IMG/VR virus record: IMGVR_UViG_3300045988_178965
Span: 123,649 to 187,648 of that record
Length of the DNA stretch: 64,000 nucleotides
Source of the DNA: a virus
Reading direction: 5' to 3' (one strand)
Made by a program: the position numbers and the translations under genes. The notes under the pieces were generated by a model. The model was not told where the DNA came from. It did no database searches and saw only the letters and a program-made list of their open reading frames with translations. This document shows, one piece after another, positions 17,778 through 37,936 of this stretch (its first letter is position 1; each line of letters begins with the position of its first letter).

Positions 17778-17805
17778 TTTGATCTCCTAAAAATTTAATA
17801 TTCAT

Positions 17806-18309: not shown

Positions 18310-18323
18310 CTATATTTAAGGTT

Positions 18324-18602: not shown

Positions 18603-18623
18603 GATAAATCCTTATTAGTTGTC

Positions 18624-18788: not shown

Positions 18789-18793
18789 AGGGG

Positions 18794-19252
18794 CTATTCC
18801 TTCACAATAATACCATTTCGGCAAATATTTATTTCTACGCCTTCTACAATTTTAGGTGTATAAATGCCTACATACAGTCGACCTTGGAAGTTTCGTACCC
18901 AAGATACAATATATTTCGTTTTAGGAGACATAAACGTATACCGAATATAAGGATCACCATTATTATCCGACACTCTATCAATATGCAACGGGACTTTAAA
19001 ATTCTGCTCAAGATCAGATAAGAACCAATTCAGATTGCCATAAAGAGTTTTGGCATCATAGTTCTTAGAAGCATATTCCATAATAGAATCAAAAATAGGG
19101 TTGCCGCGGAGAGATTTGATATAATCCGCATTGGACAATTCATCAATAAAATTCTCAATAGCGGAAATATATTCTTTACCTACACCAGAGCTCCAGTCAA
19201 TAGGCTTAGAATTAGGGTCGAACATGGTAGAAAACAAGTTTAAAGGAATCAT
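18794..19252 (-). CDS. hypothetical protein
   Basis: ATG 19252 preceded by GGAGG. 152 aa, soluble. Confidence 0.65.
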   Translation of the reverse strand: MIPLNLFSTMFDPNSKPIDWSSGVGKEYISAIENFIDELSNADYIKSLRGNPIFDSIMEYASKNYDAKTLYGNLNWFLSDLEQNFKVPLHIDRVSDNNGDPYIRYTFMSPKTKYIVSWVRNFQGRLYVGIYTPKIVEGVEINICRNGIIVKE

Positions 19253-19304
19253 TTAAAGCCTCCATAGGGCCTTATATAAAGACCCTATAACTTATTATTT
19301 GTAA

Positions 19305-19580
19305 TTACTGCAAATGAACTTCTTCGCCATCACATTCTACACACTCTTCGTCATTACTACCAAACGAAGAGAATAATGATGTAACAGCAGGTGTAATAAT
19401 CCAGATACAGCCAATAAATATTGCAAGTCCAGTAACTAAGGATGCAAATGTAGAGTTGTAGATAAAGCAAATTAAGGAAATACCTAATACTGCGCAAACC
19501 TTAAATATTGAAAGGCGCCCCTGTTGATTGTAGAACAGACGCGCCGCAATAAGATTGAAACGAGATTTCAAAAAGCCCAT
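19305..19580 (-). CDS. small membrane protein with C-terminal CxxC
   Basis: ATG preceded by GGAG. Two TM-like segments, then DEECVECDGEEVHLQ. Confidence 0.6.
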   Translation of the reverse strand: MGFLKSRFNLIAARLFYNQQGRLSIFKVCAVLGISLICFIYNSTFASLVTGLAIFIGCIWIITPAVTSLFSSFGSNDEECVECDGEEVHLQ

Positions 19581-19718
19581 AATATAGCTCCAAATGTAAT
19601 AACTGTAATCAATTTTAGCTATTTAAATACAAATAACAATAGCAAAAAATGATATAAATATAAATGCCCGCGTAATAAGCCTTTAAATAATAGCACTTTA
19701 CAACGGGCCTTTTAATTA

Positions 19719-20060
19719 TTAGATATATTCGTATTTAGAATACAATTTCTTGAACATATCACCAATCGGCCATTGAGCAGGATGATAGACCCATTTCTTA
19801 TTTTCATACTTTTTATAGCCAATCAGTTTCTTCATAATGAACAAAGAACAGCCGAAAATAAGGCCGGTAGCAGCACCAATCACAAAACCAGACATTGTTC
19901 CCGAAACGCCACAAGCAAGGCCAATTAACAAGGAAAAACAAAGGTCTACGTAAGCTTCATAGCCTAAAACCTTATACAAAAGCTCCACATTAGTCTTGGC
20001 CAAGATAGACAATATAGCCAAAGAAGTAATAGCGGAGCCAAACAATATCATAGAAATCAT
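19719..20060 (-). CDS. membrane protein
   Basis: The track start at 20102 is a TTG that reads through repeat copy 5. ATG 20060 is preceded by GGAG. Glycine-rich TM segments. Confidence 0.6.
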   Translation of the reverse strand: MISMILFGSAITSLAILSILAKTNVELLYKVLGYEAYVDLCFSLLIGLACGVSGTMSGFVIGAATGLIFGCSLFIMKKLIGYKKYENKKWVYHPAQWPIGDMFKKLYSKYEYI

Positions 20061-20087
20061 GATAACTCCATATATAATATTTACCAC

Positions 20088-20109
20088 AAAAAACCGACAC
20101 AATATCGAT
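20088..20109 (-). terminator. GTGTCGGT/U-tract element, copy 5 (weak 5-bp hairpin)
   Basis: Plus strand TTACCACAAAAAAACCGACACaatatcgat. The extended match TTACCACAAAANAACCGACAC is shared with copy 6. Confidence 0.5.
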
Positions 20110-20151
20110 TTTATAAATATTCAAAAACTAGTAGCGTAAGAGCTAAAAGAA

Positions 20152-20165
20152 GGGCCCGCCGGCCC
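20152..20165. terminator. GC-rich hairpin with T-tracts on both sides
   Basis: gggcc-cgcc-ggccc. Minus sense is followed by TTCTTTT, plus sense by TTTACCTTTTATT. Confidence 0.45.
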
Positions 20166-20174
20166 CTTTACCTT

Positions 20175-20360
20175 TTATTGGCGTAAAAACCAAAAATAAA
20201 AAACTTCAAAAACAAAGATAGATGCAAAAATTAAACATCCATAAAAGCAAATACAAGCATAAAAAATACAACAACCAAAAAATAAACAACAAACCAAAAC
20301 AAAATAGAATAAACCATAATAAACAAATACACTCCCAAATATAAAATAGAACTTATACAT
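20175..20360 (-). CDS. doubtful F/Y/C-rich hydrophobic ORF
   Basis: The ORF lies in an A/C-rich, G-poor tract that continues beyond it, so the open frame may be purely compositional. A hairpin follows it. Confidence 0.25.
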   Translation of the reverse strand: MYKFYFIFGSVFVYYGLFYFVLVCCLFFGCCIFYACICFYGCLIFASIFVFEVFYFWFLRQ

Positions 20361-20856
20361 CTACATAATACAAAATAGAATCATGTACAAGTATAAATAC
20401 TAATACATCTGTACTTCAATACAATACAGATAAACTTAAATACGAACTGCATTACAATGTACTCTAATATAGACTACATTATATGAGTACGGTCTACATT
20501 ATTGTACAAGCAGAGACTAAATTATACTGAACTCTTCAATACGGACTGCATTACCTATATTGGCTAAATATACATCTTAATACCTATTTATAGGTCTGTG
20601 CACCTACAGGTACATTTTGACACCTGTATAGCCTACAAATAGACTCTGTGCACCTGGTAGTCCAGTCCATTAAAACCCTTGCAAATACTAGCCTTACGGC
20701 TATTGGTTGCATTCTTATTATTCTTAGTATACTTATATCTCTTATGTATTGTATTAGTATTATTTATGCTTTTAATCAATACAAGGACGCGCCCGTCCTG
20801 CCTATATTAACCGTCTATTGACGTCTATATTGACTGCTTATTAGCACTTTTACCAC

Positions 20857-20885
20857 AAAATAACCGACACTTTTCAGACGTCGGT
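20857..20885 (-). terminator. GTGTCGGT/U-tract hairpin element, copy 6
   Basis: Plus strand TACCACAAAATAACCGACacttttcagacGTCGGT. Lies in the ORF-free region. Confidence 0.55.
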
Positions 20886-21166
20886 ATCCGCTAAAGGAGA
20901 AAATGATACTTTAGGAATTATTCTCATTTAGGCCTGTTTTCTGCCTAAAACAGTCCATTTTTGCTGATATACACTGTATTTCTGCAAGAATTTAGCCATT
21001 TTACTACTGATTTTACTATATCATTTATTTCTGAACGAAAAACCTGTATCTATATAAATCAACAACTTAGATAACTTCGCTCCCTTAGCCATATAAAACA
21101 AAATTAATCACTCATTTATTCTTGAACGATATCAACAATTCAACCATTCAAAAGAATAAAATCATA

Positions 21167-21182
21167 AGAAAGGTACCGACAC
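21167..21182 (-). repeat. GTGTCGGT element, copy 7 (weak or no hairpin)
   Basis: Plus strand AGAAAGGTACCGACAC, in the ORF-free region downstream of the SSB-like gene. Confidence 0.4.
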
Positions 21183-21298
21183 AACACGTCAACCAGTCAA
21201 AAAAGACAAAAATACTGGTGCACAAATACATGCACACCAGCATTCAATGGACTATAGATTGATAGGGGCTCGCTTACGCTCGCCCGTATCAGACTCTA

Positions 21299-22687
21299 TT
21301 AGAACGGACCGTCTTCGTCGTCTGCTTGAGGTTTGGTTTCAGTAGGTTGGGCTTGACCACGACGTGGACGTTTGGTTTCTTTGGTTTGAGCAGGTTTCTC
21401 GCCTTCTACTTTAGCAGTATCAGAAAAGATATCTACATCACCCAAGTCCAGACCGTCAACGTTCAGAGCGTCCAAATCAACGTCTGCGGCAACAGTAGTA
21501 GAGCCGGTTTCATTACGGTTGATGATATAACCGTCCATAGTAACGCGTGCTGTAACTACCCATGGTTGACCAGTTTCGTCGTCTTCACGTGGGGTGCGGC
21601 TTTCGAAACCGAGGACGTTATTCTCGGTGAACATGATTTCATCGGCATTGCTGCTTACGAAATCGAATGCTTCGGCGCGAGTTTGTCCACGGCCATTGTT
21701 GCCATTGCTGTACATAACTGCACGTACAGTAACGTCATTACCACGGCTGTCTTTGAAGTTAACGAACTTACGGCAATATTGAGTCGGATTGGTACCTTCT
21801 GTTACTTGAACACCAGCCAGATAGCCATCATGCAATTCGTCTTGCTCCAGGTTTGTCATTTCAGCTTGACCAGTAATAGTCAGACAGAAGTTAGGGGCAA
21901 TACGGCCATATGCACGTGGGGTAGTGCGGACATCAATTTGTTTGCCGTTGCTGGTGGTTTTGTAACTTGCTGCTGCAATCGGTACAATGCAAGGGCTCAG
22001 GCCATTTGCACCAACGTAGATTACAGTAGAAGTCGCAATTGCACCTGCGTCAACCAAGCGTTTGATTTCGGCTTTGTAACCTGCAACGATTTTGGCCATC
22101 ATTTCAGACAGCTGTTGTTCGTTATAGGTTGCGCGTTCACCGTTCTTTTCATAGGCGGTAACGATGCCTTTATCGTGGCTGACGAACGCAGAGCCGGACA
22201 GCAATGCTTCATAACCTTTGGTCAGGCTCAAAGCCTTCAACGCCAGGCCATTTGCCTTCTCATACCATTCGGAACCAAATGCTGGACCTACAGGAACAGG
22301 GAAGTTTGCCAATTTGCCATTTTGAATGCTCAAACCATTGAAGCCTGCATCCAGGAATTCCATAGCATTTGCATTGCTATTACGGACAGACGCAACGATT
22401 TGGTTAGTAGTCATACCTTCAACGTATTGCACACCGTCGTCGGCATTAGTAGCAACCCAGCAGGCACGGCCATTACTACGGCTCATTGGGGTATTTGCAA
22501 TCATGTGCACCAGTTTGTACACGGAAATGCGGTAACCCAGGGCTTCATTCTCGTCTTGGCGAGCGTCCAATACATAGAATGTACGGCGAGATGCTGCCAT
22601 TGGTGTTGCAACCTGACCGCTAACGCTGTGGAATTTGTTACGGCCAGTGTTCAGGGCGCCAGTGTCGATTTGATTCAGTTCGTTCAT
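21299..22687 (-). CDS. abundant DNA-metabolism protein, SSB-like (disordered linker + acidic ...DDEDGPF tip)
   Basis: The tail ...KRPRRGQAQPTETKPQADDEDGPF resembles SSB tips (E. coli ...DDDIPF; T7 gp2.5 acidic tail ending in F). Strong codon bias and visibly higher G+C leave the antisense frame open (21326..22711), as in the capsid genes. The ~400-aa globular part is unrecognised. Confidence 0.4.
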   Translation of the reverse strand: MNELNQIDTGALNTGRNKFHSVSGQVATPMAASRRTFYVLDARQDENEALGYRISVYKLVHMIANTPMSRSNGRACWVATNADDGVQYVEGMTTNQIVASVRNSNANAMEFLDAGFNGLSIQNGKLANFPVPVGPAFGSEWYEKANGLALKALSLTKGYEALLSGSAFVSHDKGIVTAYEKNGERATYNEQQLSEMMAKIVAGYKAEIKRLVDAGAIATSTVIYVGANGLSPCIVPIAAASYKTTSNGKQIDVRTTPRAYGRIAPNFCLTITGQAEMTNLEQDELHDGYLAGVQVTEGTNPTQYCRKFVNFKDSRGNDVTVRAVMYSNGNNGRGQTRAEAFDFVSSNADEIMFTENNVLGFESRTPREDDETGQPWVVTARVTMDGYIINRNETGSTTVAADVDLDALNVDGLDLGDVDIFSDTAKVEGEKPAQTKETKRPRRGQAQPTETKPQADDEDGPF

Positions 22688-22787
22688 GATGATTTTTCCT
22701 TTTTAGGTTGATTGAAATAAAAGATTCTTTCGGTCAAGATTCAGACCATAGAGCTGTTTTGGATTGAGGTCAGCTCTGTTACCTCAT

Positions 22788-22820
22788 AAAAATACCGACA
22801 CGACAATTTCTGCCGCGCCG
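22788..22820 (-). terminator. GTGTCGGT/U-tract hairpin element, copy 8
   Basis: cgacacgaca (22796-22805) / tgccgcgccg (22811-22820). 10 bp with three A.C in the plus sense, all G.U in the minus sense. Lies between the 22829 stop and the 22687 start. Confidence 0.6.
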
Positions 22821-22828
22821 ATATCTTA

Positions 22829-23137
22829 TTATCTCACCTTAATATTTCGCAAATAGGAATCTGCAAAGTTTAGTGAGCGTTCAATGTAAGCTACACTAGG
22901 ATTATTTAGCGCAGTTACATTATTCAGGCTATCAGACAATATCAAGGCACCTGGATTAGACTGTTTAGCGAAAAGAATTGCTTCCAGTTCTGCCGTATTG
23001 TTATCTGATGCAAGAATAGTTTTATGACCATTTACTGCCATATTCAGTGAGCAGTAACCAATTTTCCATCGATTGCCGCCCACTAAACGAGCGTCGCAGT
23101 AAATCTTATCAGGCTGCGGCCGCATTTGCTTCCTCAA
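22829..23137 (-). CDS. small RNase H-like protein
   Basis: IYCDARL (Asp), NNTAELEAILFA (compare RNase HI TNNRMEL) and LILSDSLN (Asp). Only ~100 aa, so the assignment is tentative. Confidence 0.45.
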   Translation of the reverse strand: MRKQMRPQPDKIYCDARLVGGNRWKIGYCSLNMAVNGHKTILASDNNTAELEAILFAKQSNPGALILSDSLNNVTALNNPSVAYIERSLNFADSYLRNIKVR

Positions 23138-24086
23138 TATGTTCTTTCATTGCACGCATAATTACACCTTCTTTAGACTTGCGTCCAAAGTCTTTGGTAG
23201 TTGCTGCGTCCAAGATAGACAGCATTTTACCTAAGGTATAACCGGCAATATCACGAACTGTGCCAAGAATCTTAATTACACCGCCATAGACGTACATAAC
23301 CAAACCTTTGGCCAAGTCCAATACGAACGAGCCGCCAGTTTTACAGCCAACCCAAATCTTATGGGTCCAGCCTTCTTTGTCTTCATCGTCAGTGTTCTTG
23401 ACAATATCAGACAGCAGTTTGCTGAATTTTGCGGATGTTTCTTCGTCAACACCCTCCAATCCTTCATAGAATTGGTTTGCCGCTTCATTCAACACGGCCT
23501 TTTCGGCGGTCAGTGTAGAAACACCAGTTGCGTCAGTAGTACGGTTGTATTTAACCAACGCAGTGAGGTATTCTCCCACATTCTTCAACAGCTCTGGGGT
23601 CACTTCGTCACCCTCAAATGCTAACATTTCGGACTTAATGTCCTCCACGGCGACATTGAACTTGTCGATGTTAGCGAATTTGGCTTCTGCACCGGCGATA
23701 ATTTGGGCGATTGTTTGGGTTTGGGTATTTTGAGTCATGATTTCATTTCCTTTAGCTAAAGTTTCAGATTGGGTTTCAGTTTTCACTTCGGTTTTGGACA
23801 ATTCTTCTGCCCGTTTGAATACAGACAGAGTAACAGGCCCAATTTGCTCCGGATTTTTGAGCTCGGTTCCAGAGATGGTGACCGTAACACCATTATTCTC
23901 AACAAAGCCTTTATGTGTGGCTTCACCTAAGACCGACATCCATAGAACAGCGGTCTCTGTAATTTTCTTTTCAACGGCATTTTTATGAACGCCGGTAAGT
24001 TTTTGATATTGAAGCTCCAATTTATGAAGCTCACCTTGCAATTGAAGCAGGACTTTCTTTGCCTGCTTTTGGTTTTTGATTTCCAT
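23109..24086 (-). CDS. hypothetical protein with N-terminal coiled coil
   Basis: The track start at 24155 is a TTG reading through hairpin copy 9. ATG 24086 is preceded by GGAG. The protein starts MEIKNQKQAKKVLLQLQGELHKLELQ. Confidence 0.6.
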   Translation of the reverse strand: MEIKNQKQAKKVLLQLQGELHKLELQYQKLTGVHKNAVEKKITETAVLWMSVLGEATHKGFVENNGVTVTISGTELKNPEQIGPVTLSVFKRAEELSKTEVKTETQSETLAKGNEIMTQNTQTQTIAQIIAGAEAKFANIDKFNVAVEDIKSEMLAFEGDEVTPELLKNVGEYLTALVKYNRTTDATGVSTLTAEKAVLNEAANQFYEGLEGVDEETSAKFSKLLSDIVKNTDDEDKEGWTHKIWVGCKTGGSFVLDLAKGLVMYVYGGVIKILGTVRDIAGYTLGKMLSILDAATTKDFGRKSKEGVIMRAMKEHIEEANAAAA

Positions 24087-24119
24087 TTCGGACTCCAATA
24101 AAGCAACATGCCTTTCCAC

Positions 24120-24152
24120 AAAAGAACCGACACCAAAACTAATCGGTGCCGG
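24120..24152 (-). terminator. GTGTCGGT/U-tract hairpin element, copy 9
   Basis: Plus strand CCACAAAAGAACCGACACC-aaaactaatc-GGTGCCGG. One A.C in the plus sense is G.U in the minus sense. Confidence 0.6.
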
Positions 24153-24162
24153 CAACTTTTAT

Positions 24163-24459
24163 TCAGATGAGCTCAAAGTAAGGGTCATAAGTAGTACCCT
24201 TATGGACATATTTTCCATCCTCGAGCTCATATACTGTAACGTTCTGCCCCATAGGAAGAGAAGTGTCACAAACATAGATTTTAGTAAAACCCAAAGAGCT
24301 CAAACTTTCGTCCATCTTTTTGTCAGACGAATGTTCGAACATGTCGATCCACTCTGCTTCTAATTTGCCGACGCTGGATTTCAATACGACAGTTTTGCCG
24401 TATGCCCAGTGGCGGATTTGTTTCAGAAAACGGTTGATAGAAGGGTTCTTTTTAGCCAT
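24163..24459 (-). CDS. hypothetical protein
   Basis: ATG 24459 is preceded by GGAGAT. The alternative ATG 24471 lacks an RBS. Confidence 0.6.
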   Translation of the reverse strand: MAKKNPSINRFLKQIRHWAYGKTVVLKSSVGKLEAEWIDMFEHSSDKKMDESLSSLGFTKIYVCDTSLPMGQNVTVYELEDGKYVHKGTTYDPYFELI

Positions 24460-24496
24460 GATTATCTCCATAAAAGGCTGTTAAAATGTTTACCGC

Positions 24497-24525
24497 AAAA
24501 GAACCGACACTAATTATATCGGTTC
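24497..24525 (-). terminator. GTGTCGGT/U-tract hairpin element, copy 10
   Basis: Plus strand TACCGCAAAAGAACCGAcactaattataTCGGTTC (7-bp stem). Confidence 0.6.
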
Positions 24526-24573
24526 AGATACTAGGGTTTAAACCAAGTTACTATTGGCCTTAATTAAAAAACA

Positions 24574-24603
24574 AAATGACCGACACCTCCTCAGATGCCG
24601 GCC
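24574..24603 (-). terminator. GTGTCGGT/U-tract hairpin element, copy 11
   Basis: gaccgaca (24578-) / tgccggcc (-24603). 8 bp with two G.U in the minus sense. It follows the stop at 24612. Confidence 0.6.
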
Positions 24604-24611
24604 ACTACAAA

Positions 24612-24977
24612 TTATTCAATACCAATCAGGTCTTTTGCGAGCTCATTCAGCTCTTTGTCAGATTCATTCATACGAACCATGAATAGACGTAAAGCTGGTG
24701 CAACTGTCAATACAAAGTTCATGATTGTATTGAACTTAGAGGTCCAAACGCGGATTGCTTTGCACGCCCAATCTTTGTTAATTTCGATTGAGACTTCAGC
24801 GCTACCATCTTCATTACCGGATTTCTCCCAATACAGGGTATCCTTGTTGATTTTGGTAGGATTTTTGCCGCTAATGCCTACCATGCTGTTGAATTCGCCC
24901 TCACGAGCAAAATACTCTGCGCCGGCTTCTTGCAAGGCTTTAACTTCTTTCTTAGCAAATTCGATTTTGATTTTCAT
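24612..24977 (-). CDS. hypothetical protein
   Basis: 121-aa ORF. The antisense 24595..24996 ORF is rejected. Confidence 0.6.
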   Translation of the reverse strand: MKIKIEFAKKEVKALQEAGAEYFAREGEFNSMVGISGKNPTKINKDTLYWEKSGNEDGSAEVSIEINKDWACKAIRVWTSKFNTIMNFVLTVAPALRLFMVRMNESDKELNELAKDLIGIE

Positions 24978-25015
24978 ACAATTTCCTTTATATTAGTGAT
25001 TGGGGTTATTCCCAT

Positions 25016-25042
25016 AAAAAGACCGACACAAAAATATCGGCC
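25016..25042 (-). terminator. GTGTCGGT/U-tract hairpin element, copy 12
   Basis: Plus strand AAAAAGACCGAcacaaaaataTCGGCC. One G.U in the minus sense. Confidence 0.6.
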
Positions 25043-25049
25043 CCTTAGG

Positions 25050-25364
25050 TTACAAAATTTCTACCTCAACATCATGAGCTAGAAACGGCATATTCTGTTT
25101 GGCAATCAAGATTGGATTTTGGCCTTCTGTCACATAAATCACATCAGACTCTGTTCGGCCATCAATTAATTCATATGTCACATAATATTGCCAGTCTTGA
25201 CCAATATGGAATGTTGCAACAACTTCACCATTAGAATAGGCCTTTACCATTGCGGCCTCATCCTCTGAGAACTCTATCTCTTTCTTGATCGCATCGATGT
25301 CGAGGCTGGAAACTTCATATTCCTCGTTAAAGAGATTACTTCCAAATACCTTAATGCTATACAT
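25050..25364 (-). CDS. hypothetical protein
   Basis: 104-aa ORF bounded by repeat copies 12 and 13. Confidence 0.6.
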   Translation of the reverse strand: MYSIKVFGSNLFNEEYEVSSLDIDAIKKEIEFSEDEAAMVKAYSNGEVVATFHIGQDWQYYVTYELIDGRTESDVIYVTEGQNPILIAKQNMPFLAHDVEVEIL

Positions 25365-25393
25365 TTTGGATTACTCCATTTATTTATATCGTT

Positions 25394-25406
25394 AAAATAC
25401 CGACAC
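25394..25406 (-). repeat. GTGTCGGT element, copy 13 (no clear hairpin)
   Basis: Plus strand AAAATACCGACAC, ~30 nt upstream of the 25364 start. Confidence 0.45.
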
Positions 25407-25604
25407 AAAAACCGTTGATGTTATGCAACCTATATTCAATACGGAGTTTATAAATGTCCTAGCGTATTTATATGCGTGGTTGCAACATGTTGATACCCTG
25501 TTACCTGTCCAGCGGGTGAAAAAAGGTGGGCCGCCACTGTATTGTAAAAACAACAAAGTAGGGCCCAAAGTTTTTATGGAGGTAAAAAGGATTCAAATGT
25601 TTCC

Positions 25605-25647
25605 AAAAAGAAACCGATACCAAGTGCAACAACGCTCAAGGTATCGG
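25605..25647 (-). terminator. variant hairpin element, copy 14 (CCGATACC)
   Basis: AAAAAGAAA-ccgatacc (25614-25621) / ggtatcgg (25640-25647). Perfect 8-bp stem with an 18-nt loop. Confidence 0.5.
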
Positions 25648-25677
25648 CAAAACTTACAGGGAAATCATATATGTCAT

Positions 25678-25708
25678 AAAATAACCGACATCCTTTTACA
25701 GATGCCGG
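25678..25708 (-). terminator. variant hairpin element, copy 15 (CCGACATC)
   Basis: ccgacatc (25685-25692) / gatgccgg (25701-25708). One G.U in the minus sense. It follows the stop at 25721. Confidence 0.55.
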
Positions 25709-25720
25709 CCATTGTACTGT

Positions 25721-25924
25721 TCAGATAAACGAAAACTCTTCGAATCTAGAAAACCTCAAAGAATTATCATCTTGAATCTCAAAGATTACCATATCATCAT
25801 CTTCTGAATGACTTACAATTACATCCAAGAAGTGCTTCCATATGGAAACCTCTTTATTGTTTCCTAAATCGGCCCTAAGTTCGTCAATAGAGCCGTAGGC
25901 CAATTTAAATTCGAAAGATACCAT
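25721..25924 (-). CDS. hypothetical small protein
   Basis: Start reassigned to ATG 25924 (GGAGG RBS). It shares one nucleotide with the upstream stop (TGATG). Confidence 0.55.
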   Translation of the reverse strand: MVSFEFKLAYGSIDELRADLGNNKEVSIWKHFLDVIVSHSEDDDMVIFEIQDDNSLRFSRFEEFSFI

Positions 25925-26103
25925 CAAACCTCCAGCCCTTTGACTTCGATATCGACGGCACCAACATCTTCCATACATGTGGAGATGCAAACTTGCTCAT
26001 ATACATCATCCCAGTCCATAGGGACTTCATACGAACGAAGGAAATCCTTACGGCTGCCATCTTCCATTGTAAATGTAACCAAAAAATCTGTATATTTTTT
26101 CAT
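25924..26103 (-). CDS. hypothetical small protein
   Basis: Start reassigned to ATG 26103 (GGAGG RBS). The track start at 26148 reads through hairpin copy 16. Confidence 0.55.
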   Translation of the reverse strand: MKKYTDFLVTFTMEDGSRKDFLRSYEVPMDWDDVYEQVCISTCMEDVGAVDIEVKGLEV

Positions 26104-26133
26104 GATGAAACCTCCATTAAAATTATTATCAGT

Positions 26134-26161
26134 AAAAGACCGACACATTCACGCATCGGTC
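26134..26161 (-). terminator. GTGTCGGT/U-tract hairpin element, copy 16
   Basis: Plus strand AAAAGACCGAcacattcacgcaTCGGTC. It follows the stop at 26172. Confidence 0.6.
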
Positions 26162-26171
26162 CGAAATTCTA

Positions 26172-26468
26172 TCAGAACGGGTGATCTTCACTCGCGTTCT
26201 CTTTATGAAACTTCTCTGCATATTGAGAAGCCCACTTATTAGGATTCATGCAACCTTTACCTGGGGTTGCAAACTCATGAACGGCGGAGCAGTAAACTGC
26301 CATACCATCCTGAGTCGGAATCCTACGGAACCAGCCGGGGATGTCCTTTTCAGGCATCTCAACGCCGACTGGCATAATGAAACTTGCGCCACGATACGCA
26401 GCGCTTGCAACATCGCCGGCACAAAGTTGTGCAAACGGTGAATCTGGGGTAATGACGAATTGTCGCAT
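26172..26468 (-). CDS. hypothetical protein ending in ...SEDHPF
   Basis: ATG 26468 preceded by GGAGGG. The C-terminal acidic-Pro-Phe tip is similar to that of the SSB-like protein. Confidence 0.6.
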   Translation of the reverse strand: MRQFVITPDSPFAQLCAGDVASAAYRGASFIMPVGVEMPEKDIPGWFRRIPTQDGMAVYCSAVHEFATPGKGCMNPNKWASQYAEKFHKENASEDHPF

Positions 26469-26482
26469 ACCCTACCCTCCGA

Positions 26483-26515
26483 GAAAGAAAAGAAAACGGT
26501 AGGACGAATCCTACC
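26483..26515 (-). terminator. canonical intrinsic terminator (UUCG tetraloop) after the RNAP-B gene
   Basis: Minus sense GGTAGGA-TTCG-TCCTACC (26498-26515), followed by GTTTTCTTTTCTTTC. Confidence 0.7.
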
Positions 26516-26522
26516 ACCGTTG

Positions 26523-26534
26523 AAAGACCGACAC
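26523..26534 (-). repeat. GTGTCGGT element, copy 17 (no hairpin arm)
   Basis: Plus strand GAAAGACCGACAC, just upstream (minus sense) of the UUCG terminator. Confidence 0.45.
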
Positions 26535-26624
26535 CAGAACCGCTCTACGTGAATACAGCCCCATATCGCTACGGAGCCGTATCCAGCGAGCAGTAACCTT
26601 TGCCAGTTTTTATTGGGTACGGAG

Positions 26625-29600
26625 TTACAGCATGTCGATAGCTTCGTCCATATCAACATCAACTTCATGATAAGACTCAGCTTCAACAGTCTCACCATTA
26701 GCCAAGGCTTCAGCCTCAGCCAATTTAACTTCCGCTACAACCTGAATTTGGGCAATCACTTCACGGCTTAAAGCTTTCAAGATGAAGCTAAATGGAGACT
26801 TGCCGTCCATATCCAAGAGGGCATTAACACCTTTGACATCATCCAGACCAAAGAAGAATGATGTGTTATAAATCTCGGATACATCCTTAGTGTACACATC
26901 AAAGTGTACATTCTTCCAGGTTGCGGTATGAGCCATGCGGACTGCATTGGTTTTATTCCAACGGTAACCTTGCTGACCGCGGCTACGTTTGTCCTCTTCG
27001 AACAGTTCTACAAATGTCTTGGCAATTTCAAACGCCATAGAATCATCCTGAATGAACATCAGTTCGAATGCTTTTTCAAACGCCTCAGTCATGCAGTCAA
27101 TGTCAGTTTCTTTATTGCGAAGGTTCAGATATTCGCAGAAACGCACCATGCCGTTTGAGTGTTTCATGTTCTCAACGACTTCTTTTTGCAACAAGATACC
27201 CATAGCATCAATAGCCAAGTTGGCCATGTCACTATAACCCAGTTTGTTGCGGATCAGATGTGTCAGAGTAATGAGATTATTAGTCTCACTGCCCACACCT
27301 GTCTTAGCCGCAACGATTTCCTCTACCGCTGGTTGAACGTCTTCTTTTCCCCATACCATAACGGATTTCTCACCAATCTCCTTGGTATTCAGAGAAGATA
27401 ACTCATCTTCAACATAAGAGAGTTGCTGTTTGGCAGAGTTGCAGGCCAACAGCTTAGACTCGCTCCATTGCTCTTGGCCTTCATAACCTTTGGCCCAGAA
27501 CAAGGTGAGGCGGTCGCCGTCAGCATCGTCCCTATTGGCCATATGAGAAAGGGCATCAACAAAGACTACTGATTCGCAGATGAAGCGATTCAGCTCCAAT
27601 TCTGCTTCAGAGTCAAAAGACATCAGGGTTTTAACCTTAGCTTCATAGAGGCGGAAGTTATTTTCCATCAAGATTGGAAACTTAATAGCACCCACTTCGC
27701 CTTTCTTAGCAGCCTCTTTGTATTGGCGGTCAGCGGTAATAACCTTAAAGCCGCTTTCAAAGTGATAGCTAACTGGCAGGCTACGACCTTTTGGCAAGCT
27801 GAATTTCAAGCCCTTGTGAGAGCCGAAAGTTTCCTCGATAGCCAGCAGATGTTTGGCATGAGTTTTAACTACTCCTGCAGCTTCCCAAGTTTTAGTGCCA
27901 CGGGTTTTGGCCATCAGCACAATAGAGGCAAGTGACTTGAAGAAATCACCACCAGTAAATTGCAAACCGGAGATATGATCTCCAGTGATTGTTTCCTGTT
28001 TGTCCCAGAATGATGCACCTGGGAATACGAAACTGTGATCACCGGCAATCACCTCGAAGCCACGAGGCATATTTAACAGACCAGGGAAACGACCACAGCC
28101 GTTGAATAAATTAACCAGGAATGTCTTCATCACTGATTGTGAAGATTCATCACCAACAAGTGTGGTGTATTTAACTTGTTCAACTGACAATGAACCATTG
28201 CCAGCAAACATGACAGCAAATCTATCCGCCCACCATGCACGAGTCATAGCCAAGAATTCGTTAGCGGTGCAAGACCAATCTACGTTTTTGGCAGCCGCAA
28301 CAGCTTTAGCTGTTTTACGACCAGTACGGCCAGAAATGAAGGACTTAAATAGTCCCTCACCATATTGACGAATCATTTGATCCGCCAAAAGAACACCGCC
28401 TTCAGCAGAATGAGATACTGCTTCTACAACACCAGCACGCTTCATCTCCAGCAAGCGAACCACTGGAGAGTAAGTAGTATCACCAGCCTTTAACTCAGAC
28501 AGAAGTTCATTCATCAGTGTCATTTCAGGAGACTCAATCTCAATCCCCTCGATCTTATCATTGATGCTTACTTCAGTACCAACGCGACGGTGGCCTTGCA
28601 AAGTGTAAAAGTCGGAGACATAAATCTCTTCTTCGATAACCGCAAAGCTGTACACCAGACCATCTACATTTACGGTCTTAGTGTTCATTGTAATCGCAGT
28701 ATTCGCTGTTTCTCGGAAGTCTGCATCATTCAACAAACGAAGCATAAATTGACTTAAATCGCCACCCATAATTGCATGGGCGACTCCGACCATTTTGGAC
28801 TTCAGCATTGGGCTGATAATATCTACACCCAAATAGTCCACCAAAGCGTCGATGTCGCGGACATTTGTAACAACGCCTTTGGCATGGTGGAACGATACAA
28901 TACGCATAGTGCCGTACTGCTGGACAAGTTCCTTGCGGCCATAACAAGCACCGCCAGCCAAATTCATAGCCAAAGGATGATCTTTGATATCAGCCAAGCT
29001 ATTAACTTTCTCACCATTCTCATTGGTTACAGATAAGAGCACAGCCACCTTGCGAACACCAATGGATACTTTGGTGTCTAAATCCGGATTCAGAATGCCC
29101 CTTGCAATTGCCTTTTTGCAATCATACACCGAAATGTATTTACCAGATTCCTCTGGGTGATTGACGGCAACCATGGTATCAGCCGCCTTGCGAGAGATAA
29201 ACATAGCGTCACCAACTGGCATACCTAATTTCCAGCTGGTGTCAGGACTAGTATTCAGCAAATCGCCTTGCTGAACCTTAACACCTTTAGGAGCAGGCTT
29301 CTCGGACTTAACTACTACAACACCTCCAGGTTTGCGCTTAAGGGCGTCCACCAATTTTACGCCTTCTGTGCCAATACCGGCCAGCCAGTCGATCAAGACG
29401 TCGATGCTTTCGGTAACGGATACAATTCCGTCTTTGTAAGAAACGAAACCGTGACGTGCAACTGTTTCACGGCCAAGCGGGGAATTTACCAAAGATGTAG
29501 CCAAAGTTCCTCTCTGTGCAACTACGCGAACAGAGCCCTTTGACGGACGACGAATATTAATCTCAACCTTGCCCACAATAGGCAGGGATTCACCAGCCTT

Positions 29601-30038
29601 AATCTTGCAAATAGTACGAGCCCATTCTTTAAGGTTAGTTAATTCCTCCTGAGTGGGAGTTTTGCCGGCCTTCACCGACTCCACTCTTTGTACCATAGTT
29701 GGCACACCTTCCACTTCAAAACTATAACTCATTTCATTCTCCTTAGTTTCATTCAAAACGATAGCCTCTACTTCTGCATTGGCCCAAGACAGGGCCTCAG
29801 AACGAGAACCCACTTCCTTGATTGCTACAACAGCCCCGTCTTTAACAACGGCCACGATTTCAGGACGCATAGCAGCGGCTTTGCTATTGCTCAGGGCAAC
29901 AACCTCAATACCAGCTGCGGTACGAATACCAGCTTTGATATGAGCTTTATGCTCGTATTGTTCTACAGCAGCTTCATAAGCTTTGGCAGCAGCAGCGTTT
30001 ACAGTAGTAGTGAAAGTAGAGAATTTAATAGTTGACAT
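26625..30038 (-). CDS. single-chain two-barrel RNA polymerase candidate (YonO/crAss gp66-type), copy B
   Basis: Beta-type motif RIVSFHHAKGVVTNV...ISPMLKSKMVGVAHAIMGG (~28860-28895 onward). Beta'-type motifs GAIKFPILMEN and HMANRDDADGDRLTLFW, with DADGD encoded at 27513-27527. Start reassigned to ATG 30038 (AAAGGAAATCATT-ATG). Confidence 0.65.
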   Translation of the reverse strand: MSTIKFSTFTTTVNAAAAKAYEAAVEQYEHKAHIKAGIRTAAGIEVVALSNSKAAAMRPEIVAVVKDGAVVAIKEVGSRSEALSWANAEVEAIVLNETKENEMSYSFEVEGVPTMVQRVESVKAGKTPTQEELTNLKEWARTICKIKAGESLPIVGKVEINIRRPSKGSVRVVAQRGTLATSLVNSPLGRETVARHGFVSYKDGIVSVTESIDVLIDWLAGIGTEGVKLVDALKRKPGGVVVVKSEKPAPKGVKVQQGDLLNTSPDTSWKLGMPVGDAMFISRKAADTMVAVNHPEESGKYISVYDCKKAIARGILNPDLDTKVSIGVRKVAVLLSVTNENGEKVNSLADIKDHPLAMNLAGGACYGRKELVQQYGTMRIVSFHHAKGVVTNVRDIDALVDYLGVDIISPMLKSKMVGVAHAIMGGDLSQFMLRLLNDADFRETANTAITMNTKTVNVDGLVYSFAVIEEEIYVSDFYTLQGHRRVGTEVSINDKIEGIEIESPEMTLMNELLSELKAGDTTYSPVVRLLEMKRAGVVEAVSHSAEGGVLLADQMIRQYGEGLFKSFISGRTGRKTAKAVAAAKNVDWSCTANEFLAMTRAWWADRFAVMFAGNGSLSVEQVKYTTLVGDESSQSVMKTFLVNLFNGCGRFPGLLNMPRGFEVIAGDHSFVFPGASFWDKQETITGDHISGLQFTGGDFFKSLASIVLMAKTRGTKTWEAAGVVKTHAKHLLAIEETFGSHKGLKFSLPKGRSLPVSYHFESGFKVITADRQYKEAAKKGEVGAIKFPILMENNFRLYEAKVKTLMSFDSEAELELNRFICESVVFVDALSHMANRDDADGDRLTLFWAKGYEGQEQWSESKLLACNSAKQQLSYVEDELSSLNTKEIGEKSVMVWGKEDVQPAVEEIVAAKTGVGSETNNLITLTHLIRNKLGYSDMANLAIDAMGILLQKEVVENMKHSNGMVRFCEYLNLRNKETDIDCMTEAFEKAFELMFIQDDSMAFEIAKTFVELFEEDKRSRGQQGYRWNKTNAVRMAHTATWKNVHFDVYTKDVSEIYNTSFFFGLDDVKGVNALLDMDGKSPFSFILKALSREVIAQIQVVAEVKLAEAEALANGETVEAESYHEVDVDMDEAIDML

Positions 30039-30069
30039 AATGATTTCCTTTTTAAAGATAGCCGTATAT

Positions 30070-30106
30070 AAAAGAACCATATAAGAGACCCGGCTATATC
30101 TCTTAT
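30070..30106 (-). terminator. hairpin + U-tract upstream of RNAP-B (distant relative of the repeat family)
   Basis: ataagaga (30081-30088) / tctcttat (30099-30106). The flanking AAAAGAACC is identical to the A-tract part of copies 9 and 10, but CCGACAC is missing. Confidence 0.45.
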
Positions 30107-30121: not shown

Positions 30122-30469
30122 TTATAGGCCTGCTAATTTTGCAGACCCATGAATGTTTTTACCATCCACTTTATGGACGGTAACGACCAGATTATGGCCA
30201 TTAGTGTGCCATGTTCTTGGTCTATTCTTCTTAGCATCGGTAGAACCTTTTGACTTCCACCATTGCTTAGAAGTTTCTGTTTCCAGAAAGAAGATAGTCT
30301 TACTTCCTCCTGCTTCATAGCAAGAGTCAGAAGCTCTCTCGTCAGGTATATCTTCAGAAAGATACACACCTTTTCCCTGAGCGTTTTGTTTGCCAGGGAA
30401 TAGGACGATTTCTTCGCCCTCTTTGACATTAAATATAGACGAAGAACAATGACAAAGGAGGCGTTTCAT
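30122..30469 (-). CDS. hypothetical protein (speculative minimal H-Y-E ADP-ribosyltransferase-like motifs)
   Basis: Start reassigned to ATG 30469 (GGAGAG RBS). LLCHCSS ... GKGVYLSED ... TIFFLETE loosely resemble the HGT / GxGVYFA / E strands of PARP-like ARTs. Very tentative. Confidence 0.25.
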   Translation of the reverse strand: MKRLLCHCSSSIFNVKEGEEIVLFPGKQNAQGKGVYLSEDIPDERASDSCYEAGGSKTIFFLETETSKQWWKSKGSTDAKKNRPRTWHTNGHNLVVTVHKVDGKNIHGSAKLAGL

Positions 30470-30471
30470 GC

Positions 30472-30639
30472 TTACTCTCCTTCGTATTGAGTAAGGATAC
30501 GACACTCTTTCTCAGAGTGTTTTGTTGTAACCTTACAGTGTTGATAATCGCTTCTTCTCATTGCATTGCTAATACCACCGAAAGCGGCATTAATGGAGAT
30601 AATAGCGACGATAGCAATCAGGACATAACGGATTTTCAT
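30472..30639 (-). CDS. small signal-peptide protein (55 aa, 2 Cys)
   Basis: Not in the track. ATG 30639 preceded by AGGAAATCATT. Translation MKIRYVLIAIVAIISINAAFGGISNAMRRSDYQHCKVTTKHSEKECRILTQYEGE. Confidence 0.5.
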   Translation of the reverse strand: MKIRYVLIAIVAIISINAAFGGISNAMRRSDYQHCKVTTKHSEKECRILTQYEGE

Positions 30640-30790
30640 AATGATTTCCTTTCAGAAGAAATAAATAATAAACAAAATAATGAGACAGAATTATCTCATT
30701 TATAATAACACTCTGTATTGAATGCCATTATAGATAAGATAAAAGGATGTGCAGGACTGATATCCCACACGCCCTTAAACATTATTATTA

Positions 30791-30955
30791 TCAGAGATCA
30801 CACTCTCCTTTTTGTTGCTTACAGTATCTGTCTACCGATGTGATAGATGTTTTCTTTACCACATTCTCAGCGGCGTCTTTGGCACCACTGAACATGAAAG
30901 AATAAAAAGAAAAGCAGAAGAATACAGCCGTGATTGCAATGATAAAGTTTTTCAT
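30791..30955 (-). CDS. small signal-peptide protein (54 aa, 2 Cys), paralogue-like
   Basis: Not in the track. ATG 30955 preceded by AAAGGA. Translation MKNFIIAITAVFFCFSFYSFMFSGAKDAAENVVKKTSITSVDRYCKQQKGECDL. Confidence 0.5.
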   Translation of the reverse strand: MKNFIIAITAVFFCFSFYSFMFSGAKDAAENVVKKTSITSVDRYCKQQKGECDL

Positions 30956-31469
30956 GGTTAAGTCCTTTCTTAGACTAAAGAGTAAAATAAAAGATGTAGA
31001 TGAGAGCAGTCCAGTTCACCCCAGGGGGCAAATTCCGGACATACCCCCATCCACAGGAATATCATTAATAGACACCAGGTGATCCCACTCGTTTTATCTC
31101 ATATTTTCCCTCATATTTACCCAGTCAGGTAATATTTTGTAGGCTTAGCTACCCACACGCATTACATCCACATTCCTCATTCATATATCACTCAATATTT
31201 TTAAAATATATTCACACACCAATTACACTCACATCTTCACACACCTCAAGTTTCACACCTTATCATCAACTCATTCTCATTTTTCTTCCAACCAACCCCC
31301 AATCAGTCTTTGCCTATCGGCAAAATGATGGGTCCGCCGCGCCGGGCCATTCTGTGTTTTGGGTCAATCAACCCCCTTGTTTGCCCCAGGGGGCTCAGAT
31401 CAATGGGGTGGGTTTGTTTTTGGGGGCGCCAGCCATTTTAAAATTTTTCTATTTTCAAGGGACAGTTAG

Positions 31470-35518: not shown

Positions 35519-36290
35519 TATAATATTTATGACGGAATGTGCTGAGTCGGGATAATCTACGGCATCCGGCCTTCAAGAGATATTATCTTACTGTGAACTA
35601 GTCCTAGAGAAATCTAAATAACCTCGAGAGACGGGGTCGGATGAAGCAGTAATGAAACTCCTAGATGTGGGCAAGCCTAACCGAAGGAGTCGATCGAAAA
35701 CTCGTTGTTGAAGTAGCGTAAGCTCCCTGACACTAATCATAGTAATACGAGAGGTGGCGAGTATAAATAAATTTCCTGTTATGCAGTGGATTGTAACCGA
35801 TATTAATCGGCCACATGGGAAGATGAAACATCTCTGGTCTTGTAGAGATAGCATATTGAGCTACAAGATGATACCGAAAGGTATGACTATAAATGGAAGT
35901 ATTAACGGTCCAAGGTATTCCTTGGAGGGTCAAAAAGGGTGAAGAAAAAGCCTAGGATATAGCTCTCTTACAATTAGGGTTATATCAGTAAGACATCTAC
36001 GTTGTACAACATGGCTAGATCGGGTTATTTTATTAAGCCACTTGCTTTGGTTAGGCCTAACTGTATCTAAATATATCATATGTCTAAAAAATAATAGATG
36101 GCCGCTGCGATGCGGCCCTATATTAAAAATAATAGATCAAAATTACAGATAATACATAGGCTGCGTGATGCAGCCCTAAGATCAATAGAGAAATGAACAT
36201 AAGCTTAGGATACTTACTTAAGCTTGTTATAGTCTACAATTATATTTGATAATATTTGGAGGTAGCTTGATGCTACCTCCTATTTTATTT
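35519..36290 (+). ncRNA. candidate large structured non-coding RNA (family unknown; 3' end uncertain: 36118, 36176 or 36290)
   Basis: No credible ORF for ~1.08 kb downstream of the consensus promoter. Many hairpins: atacc-GAAA-ggtat 35871-35884; ccaagg/ccttgg 35910-35925; atctct/agagat 35829-35849; actcct/aggagt 35658-35690. Possible long-range pairing gcctaacc 35675-35682 with ggttaggc 36049-36056. The region ends in three hairpins. Confidence 0.4.
36258..36290 (+). terminator. intrinsic terminator
   Basis: ggaggtagc (36258-36266) / gctacctcc (36272-36280), loop ttgat, followed by TATTTTATTT. Confidence 0.7.
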
Positions 36291-36595: not shown

Positions 36596-37936
36596 ATGGC
36601 TATTCCAAATAAAGAAATACAAGAAATGTTTGATCTGTCTGCAGGTATTATCTCTGCTCATGAAATGAGAGAAAAAGAGAAGACAAAAGAGAAGACAGAA
36701 GTTGAAAAAACAGTATCTATGATACAAGAAACAGAATCAAAATCTATTCCGATTTTATTCTCATCTAGAGGTATAAAAGTAGTTGATAATAAAATCACAA
36801 GAGCTAGATATTTAGATGCATTATCGCTAGATGATAAACTATACGAGAGTATTGTACTTACAGAATCTGAGGCATTAGCTTTCAGTACCAGCTTAAGACG
36901 ATCAACCGATGGTGGTATCTCAACATACTCTCCAATGATCTGTAGAGGACAAAACTGCAAGGTTAAAGAAACATGCTTAACTGGAGACTCAATGGTCTCT
37001 ATGCATGACGGTAAACAAGTAAGAATTGATCGTATTAAAAGTGGCGATAAAATTATTTCGTTCAATACAAAAACAAAATGTATTGAACGGGACACTGTAT
37101 ATGCAACGACATATGTTGGCGAAGAGTTGGTGTATGAAATCACCACTACTGCCGGTCATTGCATTAAGGCGACATCGAATCATCAGTTTTTTGCAATAAA
37201 AGGACGAGGTTCAAAATTCAAGTTCTTATCAATTGATGATGGACTTACAGTAGGCAGCAAGCTGGTGTATGAAGATCTCTTCAGCGAAGAGGAGAATTCA
37301 TATGGGGATTGCTTAATTACCAAGATTGAATCCATAGAAGCTATTGGTGTTCTTCCAGTTTATGATATTCAAGTCTTTAAAAACTCTAATTTCTTTGCAG
37401 AAGGGTTGCTAGTCCATAACTGCCAGTTGTATAAGATGAACAAAGCTCCAGTCGGAGCCCCATGTATTTATGAGCAAGACTATTTGCGTAGTCAAACTGA
37501 AAGATACTTCGAAGAATTCAATGTTCAACCAGATAGCCCAACTGAAATGCAAATGGTCGCAGAACTTGCGGAAATTGACCTTTATGAAAGAAGGGTTACA
37601 CAAATCTTATCATTAACTCACCAAGACTTTAGTCAGGAAGATATGATGGGATTTGATGCTGCAGGGAATATGATTGCGCGTGACGACATCTCAAGATACC
37701 TAAACATCAAAGAGAAATTGAAAAACCGAAGAAGCAAACTTCTAGAGTCATTAATGGCGACAAGGAAAGAGCGGGCAAAGATTGCAGTACAGGCATCAGG
37801 ATCTGCTATTGGAAGTGGAAGTCAATCGCTCAAAGATAAACTTGATATGCTTACTGCTGCAACACGAGGGCAGTATGTCGATCCATCAGTGATAAATGGT
37901 TCAAAAAATGACACAAATCAAAAAGGTTCTAAATAA
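36596..37936 (+). CDS. intein-containing Zn-ribbon protein at the head of the packaging module (possible small terminase; function uncertain)
   Basis: The exteins carry CRGQNC-x5-[intein]-C-x14-C. The C-terminal part is coiled-coil-like. First gene of the packaging/head operon. Confidence 0.35.
   Translation: MAIPNKEIQEMFDLSAGIISAHEMREKEKTKEKTEVEKTVSMIQETESKSIPILFSSRGIKVVDNKITRARYLDALSLDDKLYESIVLTESEALAFSTSLRRSTDGGISTYSPMICRGQNCKVKETCLTGDSMVSMHDGKQVRIDRIKSGDKIISFNTKTKCIERDTVYATTYVGEELVYEITTTAGHCIKATSNHQFFAIKGRGSKFKFLSIDDGLTVGSKLVYEDLFSEEENSYGDCLITKIESIEAIGVLPVYDIQVFKNSNFFAEGLLVHNCQLYKMNKAPVGAPCIYEQDYLRSQTERYFEEFNVQPDSPTEMQMVAELAEIDLYERRVTQILSLTHQDFSQEDMMGFDAAGNMIARDDISRYLNIKEKLKNRRSKLLESLMATRKERAKIAVQASGSAIGSGSQSLKDKLDMLTAATRGQYVDPSVINGSKNDTNQKGSK
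36974..37420 (+). mobile_element. mini-intein (149 aa, no endonuclease domain)
   Basis: Starts at Cys (TGC 36974; CLTGDSMV). Block B is TSNH. Ends LLVHN (AAC 37418-37420), followed by +1 Cys (37421). Confidence 0.8.

Follow-up and report, generated by a model that had tools for sequence, protein, structure and literature searches.

Single-chain two-barrel RNA polymerases (RNAPs) are minimal relatives of the cellular RNA polymerases, and few of them, namely YonO, crAss gp66, P23-45 gp64/gp96, and QDE-1, have been studied. The window analyzed herein, a stretch of 64,000 nt (positions 123,649 to 187,648 of the IMG/VR record IMGVR_UViG_3300045988_178965), is part of the genome of an uncultivated tailed phage of ~185 kb, which carries genes for two very distantly related single-chain two-barrel RNAP-like proteins, copy A (10762-14202, minus strand, 1146 aa) and copy B (26625-30038, minus strand, 1137 aa). 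The questions raised by this locus are whether copy B is a genuine RNAP, how it is related to copy A, and whether a repeated element lying between the two genes belongs to either of them. An initial annotation, made from the nucleotide letters and the open reading frames (ORFs), had described B as a diverged two-barrel paralogue of A and had proposed a two-polymerase cascade. The paralogy was upheld by the motifs, the profile-profile homology, and the fold matches, and we estimate at roughly 60% the probability that B is a genuine RNAP and an ancient paralogue of A, with which it would form a conserved B-A module having a temporal division of labor.

Sequence motifs of copy B

The longest frame of B spans 26625-30080 on the minus strand. 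Since the B homologues consist of 1135-1137 aa and a ribosome-binding-site-like AAAGGAAATCATT is present upstream of the ATG at 30038, the 1137-aa start was judged to be correct, and the second protein of ~1137 aa proposed in the initial annotation proved real. The peptides quoted there were all present in the quoted order, namely RIVSFHHAKGVVTNV (residues 379-393), ISPMLKSKMVGVAHAIMGG (408-426), GAIKFPILMEN (783-793), and ANRDDADGDRLTLFW (834-848). DADGD had been correctly placed at 27513-27527, on the minus strand, and the separation of the two motif pairs, given as about 455 aa, is 453 aa from K387 to D840.

The beta-type double-psi beta-barrel (DPBB-B) of B is encoded at 28761-28904 (minus strand; residues 379-426, RIVSFHHAKGVV ... 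VDIISPMLKSKMVGVAHAIMGG), and its columns R379, S382, K387, K413, and G418 were invariant in a diverse alignment of B relatives. The spacing of eight residues between R379 and K387 is the same as that between K1065 and K1073 of Escherichia coli RpoB in GDKMAGRHGNKGV, and this basic pair, corresponding to R408/K416 in A, is invariant and shares the KGV context with RpoB. The beta'-type barrel (DPBB-A; 27513-27683, minus strand; residues 786-842) reads K-F-P ... N-R-D-D-A-D-G-D, with K786, P788, D838, D840, G841, and D842 invariant. K786-F-P788, the counterpart of which in A is R-S-P, precedes the start of the triad at D838 by 49 residues, and the metal-binding triad D838-A-D840-G-D842 was unchanged in 10 sequences down to 19% identity. 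When the ORFs of the window were screened for [RK]xP-x(20-100)-DxDGD, after the filter of Chaban et al. (2024) that places [RK]xP 20-100 residues ahead of DxDxD, B and A alone passed.

Bridge-helix-like AAKTGVGSETNNLITLTHLIRN and trigger-loop-like QKEVVENMKHSNG segments were found at 27150-27311 (minus strand; residues 910-963), where K912, G916, T919, Q951, and K959 are invariant. This region aligns with AKKAVGPGTNN and INAIKHIKGG of A, and the motifs AK.G...TNN and Q..V..(M/I)KH..G are conserved and common to both proteins. At the motif level only, they resemble ARKGLADTALKTANSGY and MRTFHIGG of RpoC, with AAKTGVGSETNN of B falling to the bridge-helix-like segment and ENMKHSNG to the trigger-loop-like one. 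The order of the motifs in B, i.e., DPBB-B, K-x-P, DxDGD, bridge-like, and trigger-like, is that of the single-chain enzymes, and a motif table lined them up with those of E. coli RpoB/RpoC and P23-45 gp64/gp96, K-F-P...DADGD corresponding to NRAPTLH...NADFDGD of RpoC. Over relatives at 19-86% identity, no change was seen in the catalytic residues of both barrels, in [RK]xP, or in the motifs resembling the bridge helix and the trigger loop. A chance occurrence of the RNAP motifs in B was ruled out by this invariance together with their collinearity and the synteny described below.

Homologues and structural model of copy B

A word-indexed search with B retrieved 81 close homologues of 71-100% identity, all of them labeled "hypothetical" and located on contigs of up to ~188 kb, while an exhaustive HMMER search against 1.84 billion representatives identified five distant, full-length relatives of 22-37% identity. 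A repeated search with a diverse B profile returned the same 81 close relatives and nothing further. No match for A or B was found in Pfam or PHROGs, nor in Pfam for any member of the family alignments, and a PDB sequence search with single sequences and profiles of A and B gave none either. Likewise, tblastn of B against 50,697 phage records yielded no match, and no Pfam, PHROG, or BLAST link of A or B to YonO was found.

An AlphaFold2 model of B built on the shallow alignment (at least 71% identity) was unusable, with a mean predicted local distance difference test (pLDDT) score of 39. The diverse alignment gave a pLDDT of 53.7 and a predicted template modeling (pTM) score of 0.46, residues 323-480, which contain the DPBB-B core, reaching 70-89. 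When this model was compared with the PDB by Foldseek, ~45 of the top 50 matches were beta'/Rpb1 chains of RNAPs, including AR9 non-virion RNAP and plant Pol IV, all of them weak (E ≥ 0.08). Against BFVD, the matches below 1e-3 were two large, uncharacterized phage proteins, one unnamed (1.4e-5) and the other a "minor tail protein" that was matched in its first segment (2.7e-4); further matches comprised nudivirus LEF-9 (3e-3), nudivirus and Myoviridae proteins annotated as "DNA-directed RNA polymerase", and, weakly (E 0.3-2), giant proteins of crAss-like phages. Mainly from the invariant motif set, and secondarily from the fold matches, B is very likely an RNAP, and it is probably active as a single-chain two-barrel RNA polymerase.

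Relationship between copies A and B

Copy A carries RITSHTGLKGVTK, NSIKAKENTVRLMQ, LRSPFLW, and HSDIDGDLL in the same order as B, DPBB-B preceding DPBB-A within one polypeptide in both proteins, and its invariant residues are R408, S411, K416, G417, V418, T419, K420, and K447. The two proteins had been described as barely alignable outside the motifs, and BLASTP between them indeed gave no match (best E 1.2). Similarly, the probability obtained by hhalign was 0.6% when the shallow B family was compared with the A family. With the diverse B alignment, it rose to 95.7% (E 8.4e-9) over 193 columns that comprise the DxDGD barrel and the subsequent bridge- and trigger-like helices, and thus the diversity of the alignment had been limiting. 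Under relaxed settings, the two families were collinear over 886 columns (residues 78-1131 versus 89-1144; E 7.5e-7), with the beta motif in register, MRIVSFHHAKGVV placed on SRITSHTGLKGVT, and VDIISPMLKSK on VDIFTGVNSIKAK. This collinearity indicated that A and B are homologous along most of their length and are very old paralogues.

Distribution and gene order

For the relatives, ~20 kb around each gene was covered. B and A were found on the same IMG/VR contigs in three lineages, all with genomes of 170-186 kb, the identities to the proteins of the window being 78-88% for B and 80-99% for A in lineage 1, 34-35% and 49-50% in lineage 2, and 27-29% and 45-46% in lineage 3. A is thus the slower-evolving paralogue, B having diverged faster in all three. 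Gene order and strand were constant throughout, with B followed by 12-16 kb of small genes and then by A, downstream on the same strand. B heads one arm of the genome, preceded by a few small ORFs, and the lysis or structural genes lie on the opposite strand; it is a free-standing ORF of 1137 aa, with the terminase, portal, and capsid genes in the opposite arm, and this position was kept in the relatives' loci L002, L004, and L030. Phages of this type recur in metagenomes, including human microbiome samples of IMG/VR.

The A family was also present without a detectable B, on contigs of 230-243 kb and in the cultured Acinetobacter phage ME3 (NC_041884). In ME3, the A homologue (L061, 222114-226849) is split into gp152 and gp154, both annotated as hypothetical, by the endonuclease gene gp153, and it was the sole A homologue in the 50,697 phage records. 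A hidden Markov model (HMM) search of all ME3 ORFs detected it with E-values of 6e-177 and 3e-80 and found no B. ME3 additionally carries a small "baculo_LEF5_C superfamily" protein (L060, 187426-187638); LEF-5 is a TFIIS-like factor of the baculovirus RNAP.

The repeated cassette between B and A

The element GTGTCGGT occurs in 13 exact copies, all on the minus strand and all within 14245-26534, compared with 0.44 expected by chance, and none of 100 shuffles reached 13. The 8-mers start at 14245, 18285, 20093, 20863, 21175, 22794, 24126, 24503, 24579, 25022, 25399, 26139, and 26527, and each is part of a cassette consisting of GTGTCGGT, a T-tract, and TGG/TGA, the whole zone spanning 14244-26545 (minus strand). 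As had been claimed, the element precedes A and genes between the two copies, and no GTGTCGGT was found upstream of B. The first cassette (26495-26534, minus strand) is located 91 nt past the B stop and is immediately followed by an ordinary hairpin with a T-tract (26495-26518). The last one (14244-14269, minus strand), composed of GACCGGCACTCGATTGAGTGTCGGTC and TTTTCATGG, lies 42 nt upstream of the A start with a dG of -20.2.

In 10-11 of the 13 copies, GTGTCGGT forms the 3' arm of a stem-loop of 8-14 bp (dG of -12 to -20 for most, loops mostly of 4-8 nt) that stands directly before the U-tract on the transcript, as in an intrinsic terminator, and TGG/TGA follows downstream. The cassettes accordingly ranked top among the terminator-like sites in a terminator scan, whereas some copies retain the motif and T-tract without a stem. 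Unlike in a generic terminator, a particular stem sequence is kept, the 3' arm being unchanged in 13/13 copies and the 5' arm being variable, often with G.U wobble pairs. Since these wobbles would be A.C mismatches on the other strand, the structure is selected on the sense strand or in RNA. Across the window and its relatives, at least 7 of the 8 motif positions were paired at 23 of 37 sites, in comparison with 2 of 37 in shuffled controls.

The motif is RTGTCGGY in lineage 2 and GTGTCGAY in lineage 3, which has the most divergent B, and the partner base in the 5' arm changed there from C to T at 11/11 sites. At motif position 7, the pair is C-G in lineages 1-2 and has become T-A in lineage 3 (11/11), a compensatory change. 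In every lineage, the cassettes were confined to the B-A interval, from 67-300 nt past the B stop (67 nt in lineage 3, ~290 nt in L004) to at or before A, the last one being ~50-64 nt before A in other lineage-1 genomes. No cassette was found around A in the ME3-like contigs. Terminator-like hairpins outside the zone, such as the ordinary, non-cassette hairpin with a T-tract 13 nt past the A stop (10724-10749, minus strand), are unrelated in sequence to the cassette. At 24503-24586 (minus strand), a pair of cassettes is spaced by 76 nt without an intervening ORF, and this tandem arrangement of the copies at 24503 and 24579 is hard to explain if each cassette serves one downstream gene only.

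The initial annotation had interpreted the element as marking the genes that B transcribes. Its link to B stood, as judged from its position, its change with the lineage, and its absence in A-only phages; its reading as a plain promoter box did not, because most copies are the 3' arm of a stem-loop with a T-tract and have the shape of a terminator. In RNA, the most likely role of the cassette is that of a terminator or attenuator. At the same time, an invariant 3' arm combined with a free 5' arm suggests that the arm and the T-tract carry a sequence-specific signal besides the RNA hairpin, which is probably read by B, for initiation as a promoter, as a polymerase-specific terminator, or as both. 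A hairpin promoter of the N4 type, which has a stem of 5-7 bp and a 3-nt loop and is formed on the template strand, was rejected on account of the stems of 8-14 bp, the loops mostly of 4-8 nt, and the G.T pairs that become A.C mismatches on the template strand.

Genomic context of copy B

At the head of the B arm, a non-coding block of ~80 nt (CCTGGTGTCTAT..ATG..GGGGGTATGTCCGGAATTTGCCCCCTGG; 31015-31093, minus strand) contains the longest invariant runs of the non-coding region in nine lineage-1 genomes. It is nearly identical in lineage 3 (L030, ~7640-7710), where B is only 28% identical, and GCCCCCTNGG occurs twice per genome near it in most of the genomes checked. Rfam gave no match for the block, and an origin, a packaging site, and a control region of the B operon are candidates for its role. 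Between the block and B are three small leader ORFs (30122-30955, minus strand), two of which have hydrophobic, signal-peptide-like N-termini, and small ORFs are also present ahead of B in L030, L002, and L004. A scan for sigma-70-type sites was uninformative (49 sites versus 47.5 expected), and T4-late-like TATAAATA sites were scattered inside genes.

B had been described as richer in G+C than an AT-rich A, and the difference is real but moderate (GC content of 0.45 in B versus 0.38 in A). The GC contents at third codon positions (GC3) are 0.43 in B, 0.35 in A, and 0.19-0.33 in the far-left genes; the shift is gradual along the arm and not peculiar to B. Within the window, both GC and GC3 are highest in B, its GC content being close to that of the major capsid gene. 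GC3 declines along the left arm (1-31000, minus-strand genes), with values of 0.36-0.50 for the genes at 21-25 kb.

Several anti-defence-type domains are encoded between B and A, or upstream of A in the relatives, namely NADAR (17017-17532 of the window, minus strand), a Tad2-like domain (L010, 9647-9910), and Macro (L006, 1725-2264). Their presence in the B-A block fits an early, host-takeover class of genes.

Proposed mechanism and alternatives

Plausible hypotheses are a B-linked module for early transcription and a cascade of two polymerases. In such a scheme, a short leader operon ending with B would be expressed first, probably by the host RNAP, and its transcription would end at the hairpins just past B (26495-26534). 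B may then act on the block marked by the cassettes, the A gene being part of this block or following on from it, and A, the older and more widespread enzyme, would transcribe later genes. By analogy, the most likely arrangement is a temporal division of labor similar to those of P23-45, N4, and phiKZ, and the economical model would combine the logic of T7 with that of P23-45.

Several observations weigh against this interpretation. The overall confidence of the B model is low, no PDB fold match reached E ≤ 1e-3, and the two significant BFVD matches are one unnamed protein and one annotated as "minor tail protein". None of the eight hhalign comparisons of the A and B families with single sequences of gp64, gp96, RpoB, and RpoC was significant, the probability for gp64 and gp96 being at most 3.7%. 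Four of the eight (RpoC-A, RpoC-B, gp64-B, and gp96-A) aligned the active site, in the DxDGD neighborhood only, the best local match of B to E. coli RpoC being NADFDGD, and the remaining four aligned unrelated stretches; a placement of the RpoB barrel on residues 165-276 of A instead of 405-460 (E 0.6) was treated as noise. Upstream of B, a consensus sigma-70-type promoter was not found on its strand, and no promoter-like motif shared within the right (late) arm or the far-left genes was found. The initial annotation had assigned the rightward late block to A; no motif ties A to that arm, and this part of the cascade is without support yet. In lineages 2 and 3, a distance of 2-4 kb separates the last cassette from the downstream A, which is thus not always directly preceded by one, and a terminator shape can be read by any bacterial RNAP, so that the cassette need not be a signal of B.

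The main rival explanation, which we consider unlikely, is that B is a virion-packaged RNAP injected with the DNA that would transcribe the cassette block including A on entry, its own gene being expressed late. The immediately useful anti-defence-type genes of the block (NADAR here, Tad2-like in L010, Macro in L006), the faster evolution of B, its GC and GC3, the highest in the window, with a GC near that of the major capsid gene, and the failure to find a sigma-70 consensus upstream on its strand would all suit such an enzyme, as would the second-best BFVD match, an N-terminal segment of a large "minor tail protein" that recalls the tape-measure-fused RNAP of P23-45. However, B is free-standing and unfused to a virion protein, heads an early-type arm in which it is co-directional with early genes and opposite to the structural arm, and shares no late-promoter motif that we could find with the latter. 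Known virion RNAP genes, in contrast, sit in late or structural modules. It is still less probable that the cassettes are ordinary RNA elements (terminators, attenuators, or mRNA-stability hairpins), i.e., a repeated cassette with no specific link to B, and that B and A divide the genome otherwise, for example with B serving middle genes and A late genes. The hairpin and U-tract shape, the G.U wobbles indicating function in RNA, and the tandem copies at 24503 and 24579 would be expected of such elements, but a plain terminator has no need of a 3' arm that is invariant while the 5' arm drifts, the other terminator-like hairpins of the genome are unrelated in sequence, and some copies hold the motif and T-tract without any hairpin. 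Furthermore, the zone starts right past B in all lineages, and the element is missing in A-only phages.

Two further explanations concern the enzymes themselves. That A or B is not a transcriptase but a primase-like enzyme, a QDE-1-like RNA-dependent polymerase, a PolD-like DNA polymerase, or an inactive structural relic appears highly improbable: the two-barrel superfamily does include RNA-dependent RNAPs and archaeal PolD, but the catalytic residues are all conserved in both families under long divergence, the trigger-loop-like and bridge-helix-like motifs are retained, and the fold matches are RNAPs and not PolD. The heterodimer of A and B, raised as an alternative in the initial annotation, is hardly credible. 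The two always co-occur in the 170-186 kb phages, but each chain carries the complete set of both barrels with the full catalytic set, ME3 has A alone, and the genes, separated by 12-16 kb, differ in their rate of evolution. Returning to the cascade initiated by B, a more elaborate and rather speculative version is that B and the cassette constitute a self-contained, host-independent early module that was added to an older, A-only lineage, with the cassettes as dual signals. The RNA hairpin and U-tract would stop the host RNAP, and perhaps A, and the invariant 3' arm, the T-tract, and TGR together might be a promoter or start site for B. If this were true, only the fast-evolving polymerase of the phage itself could read the early anti-defence block, and signal and polymerase would co-evolve, as in GTGTCGGT versus GTGTCGAY.

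Comparison with known systems

According to the initial annotation, no phage with two single-chain two-barrel RNAPs had been described; this was in error, as the Thermus phage P23-45 has two, which operate in a cascade, and such pairs of RNAPs are encoded by many viral genomes (Chaban et al., 2024; PMC10770324). The P23-45 gene of the second, non-virion RNAP, gp64, is transcribed by gp96, the virion RNAP fused to the tape measure, and the two use different promoters, one having a conserved 26-nt terminator motif (PMC10770324). The phage analyzed here is similar in that it encodes two single-chain two-barrel RNAP-like proteins that are ancient paralogues of each other, in the divergent early and late arms of its genome, and in features to which our scheme can be likened, i.e., one RNAP transcribing the gene of the other and distinct DNA signals including a terminator motif of conserved sequence. 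It differs in that A and B are both free-standing and similar in size (1146 and 1137 aa) without fusion to a tail protein, show no significant sequence similarity to gp64 or gp96, and are accompanied by a hairpin/U-tract cassette as the signal.

A and B resemble YonO of the Bacillus prophage SPbeta and the YonO-like enzymes of 0305phi8-36 and c-st (Forrest et al., 2017, PMC5467207; Iyer et al., 2021, PMC7824862) as single chains of ~100-130 kDa with both DPBB domains, encoded by tailed phages and very distant from cellular RNAPs; for the YonO phages, which were compared by description only, a single such enzyme has been described. The survey of Iyer et al. (2021), which analyzed ME3, does not include it among the phages with two-barrel RNAPs, and Supplementary Data 4 of Chaban et al. 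(2024) contains no DADGD or DIDGD entries.

The order of DPBB-B and then DPBB-A in one chain is also that of gp66 from phi14:2, a crAss-like phage, and of eukaryotic QDE-1. Unlike B, which is free-standing in the early arm, gp66 lies within a packaged protein of ~2,200 aa that is encoded in the structural module. More generally, B is neither part of a giant virion protein nor encoded in a late module, in contrast to the virion RNAPs N4 gp50, crAss gp66, and P23-45 gp96. The phages phiKZ and AR9 likewise have two phage-encoded two-barrel RNAP sets and a temporal division of labor, but theirs consist of 4-5 separate polypeptides each and lie nearer to bacterial beta/beta', whereas single chains are found here. 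In the early logic of T7, the phage RNAP is produced by the host enzyme, and an early terminator and then the phage promoters come after it. The present locus is comparable in that the polymerase gene heads an arm, a terminator-like hairpin comes after it, and a repeated conserved signal starts right after. On the other hand, T7 RNAP belongs to the unrelated right-hand single-subunit enzymes, only one RNAP is encoded by T7, and hairpins are not a feature of its promoters.

Other features of the window

The right arm of the window (plus strand) encodes the large terminase with an intein, the portal protein, and the major capsid protein, and the left arm (minus strand) contains small genes together with those for an AAA ATPase, a GHKL ATPase, NADAR, and a cell-wall hydrolase. 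A full-length match to the Rfam HOLDH RNA (RF02997) was found at 35520-35884 (plus strand; 374.6 bits versus a gathering score of 319.4), in the gap separating the lysis-side genes from the packaging genes. Two intein-type insertions are present at 36596-37936 and 41222-44473 (both on the plus strand), a 446-aa ORF carrying an Intein_splicing/Hint domain and the large terminase an internal LAGLIDADG domain. An adhesin of the trimeric autotransporter type, YadA-like and comprising head, stalk, and membrane anchor, is encoded at 6071-7864 (minus strand), as well as in L010 (18023-19816), and a phage-borne adhesin of this type indicates a Gram-negative host.

Significance

What is new here is two unannotated enzyme families, both free-standing, together with a distinctive hairpin cassette linked to one of the two. 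Neither the A nor the B family is detected by Pfam, PHROGs, a PDB sequence search, or BLAST, and both were missed by two expert surveys. For experiments on the A family, ME3 provides a starting point, being a cultured relative that carries A only. As a short, sharply defined candidate signal co-varies with one enzyme, the promoter or terminator specificity of a minimal two-barrel RNAP becomes directly testable in vitro.

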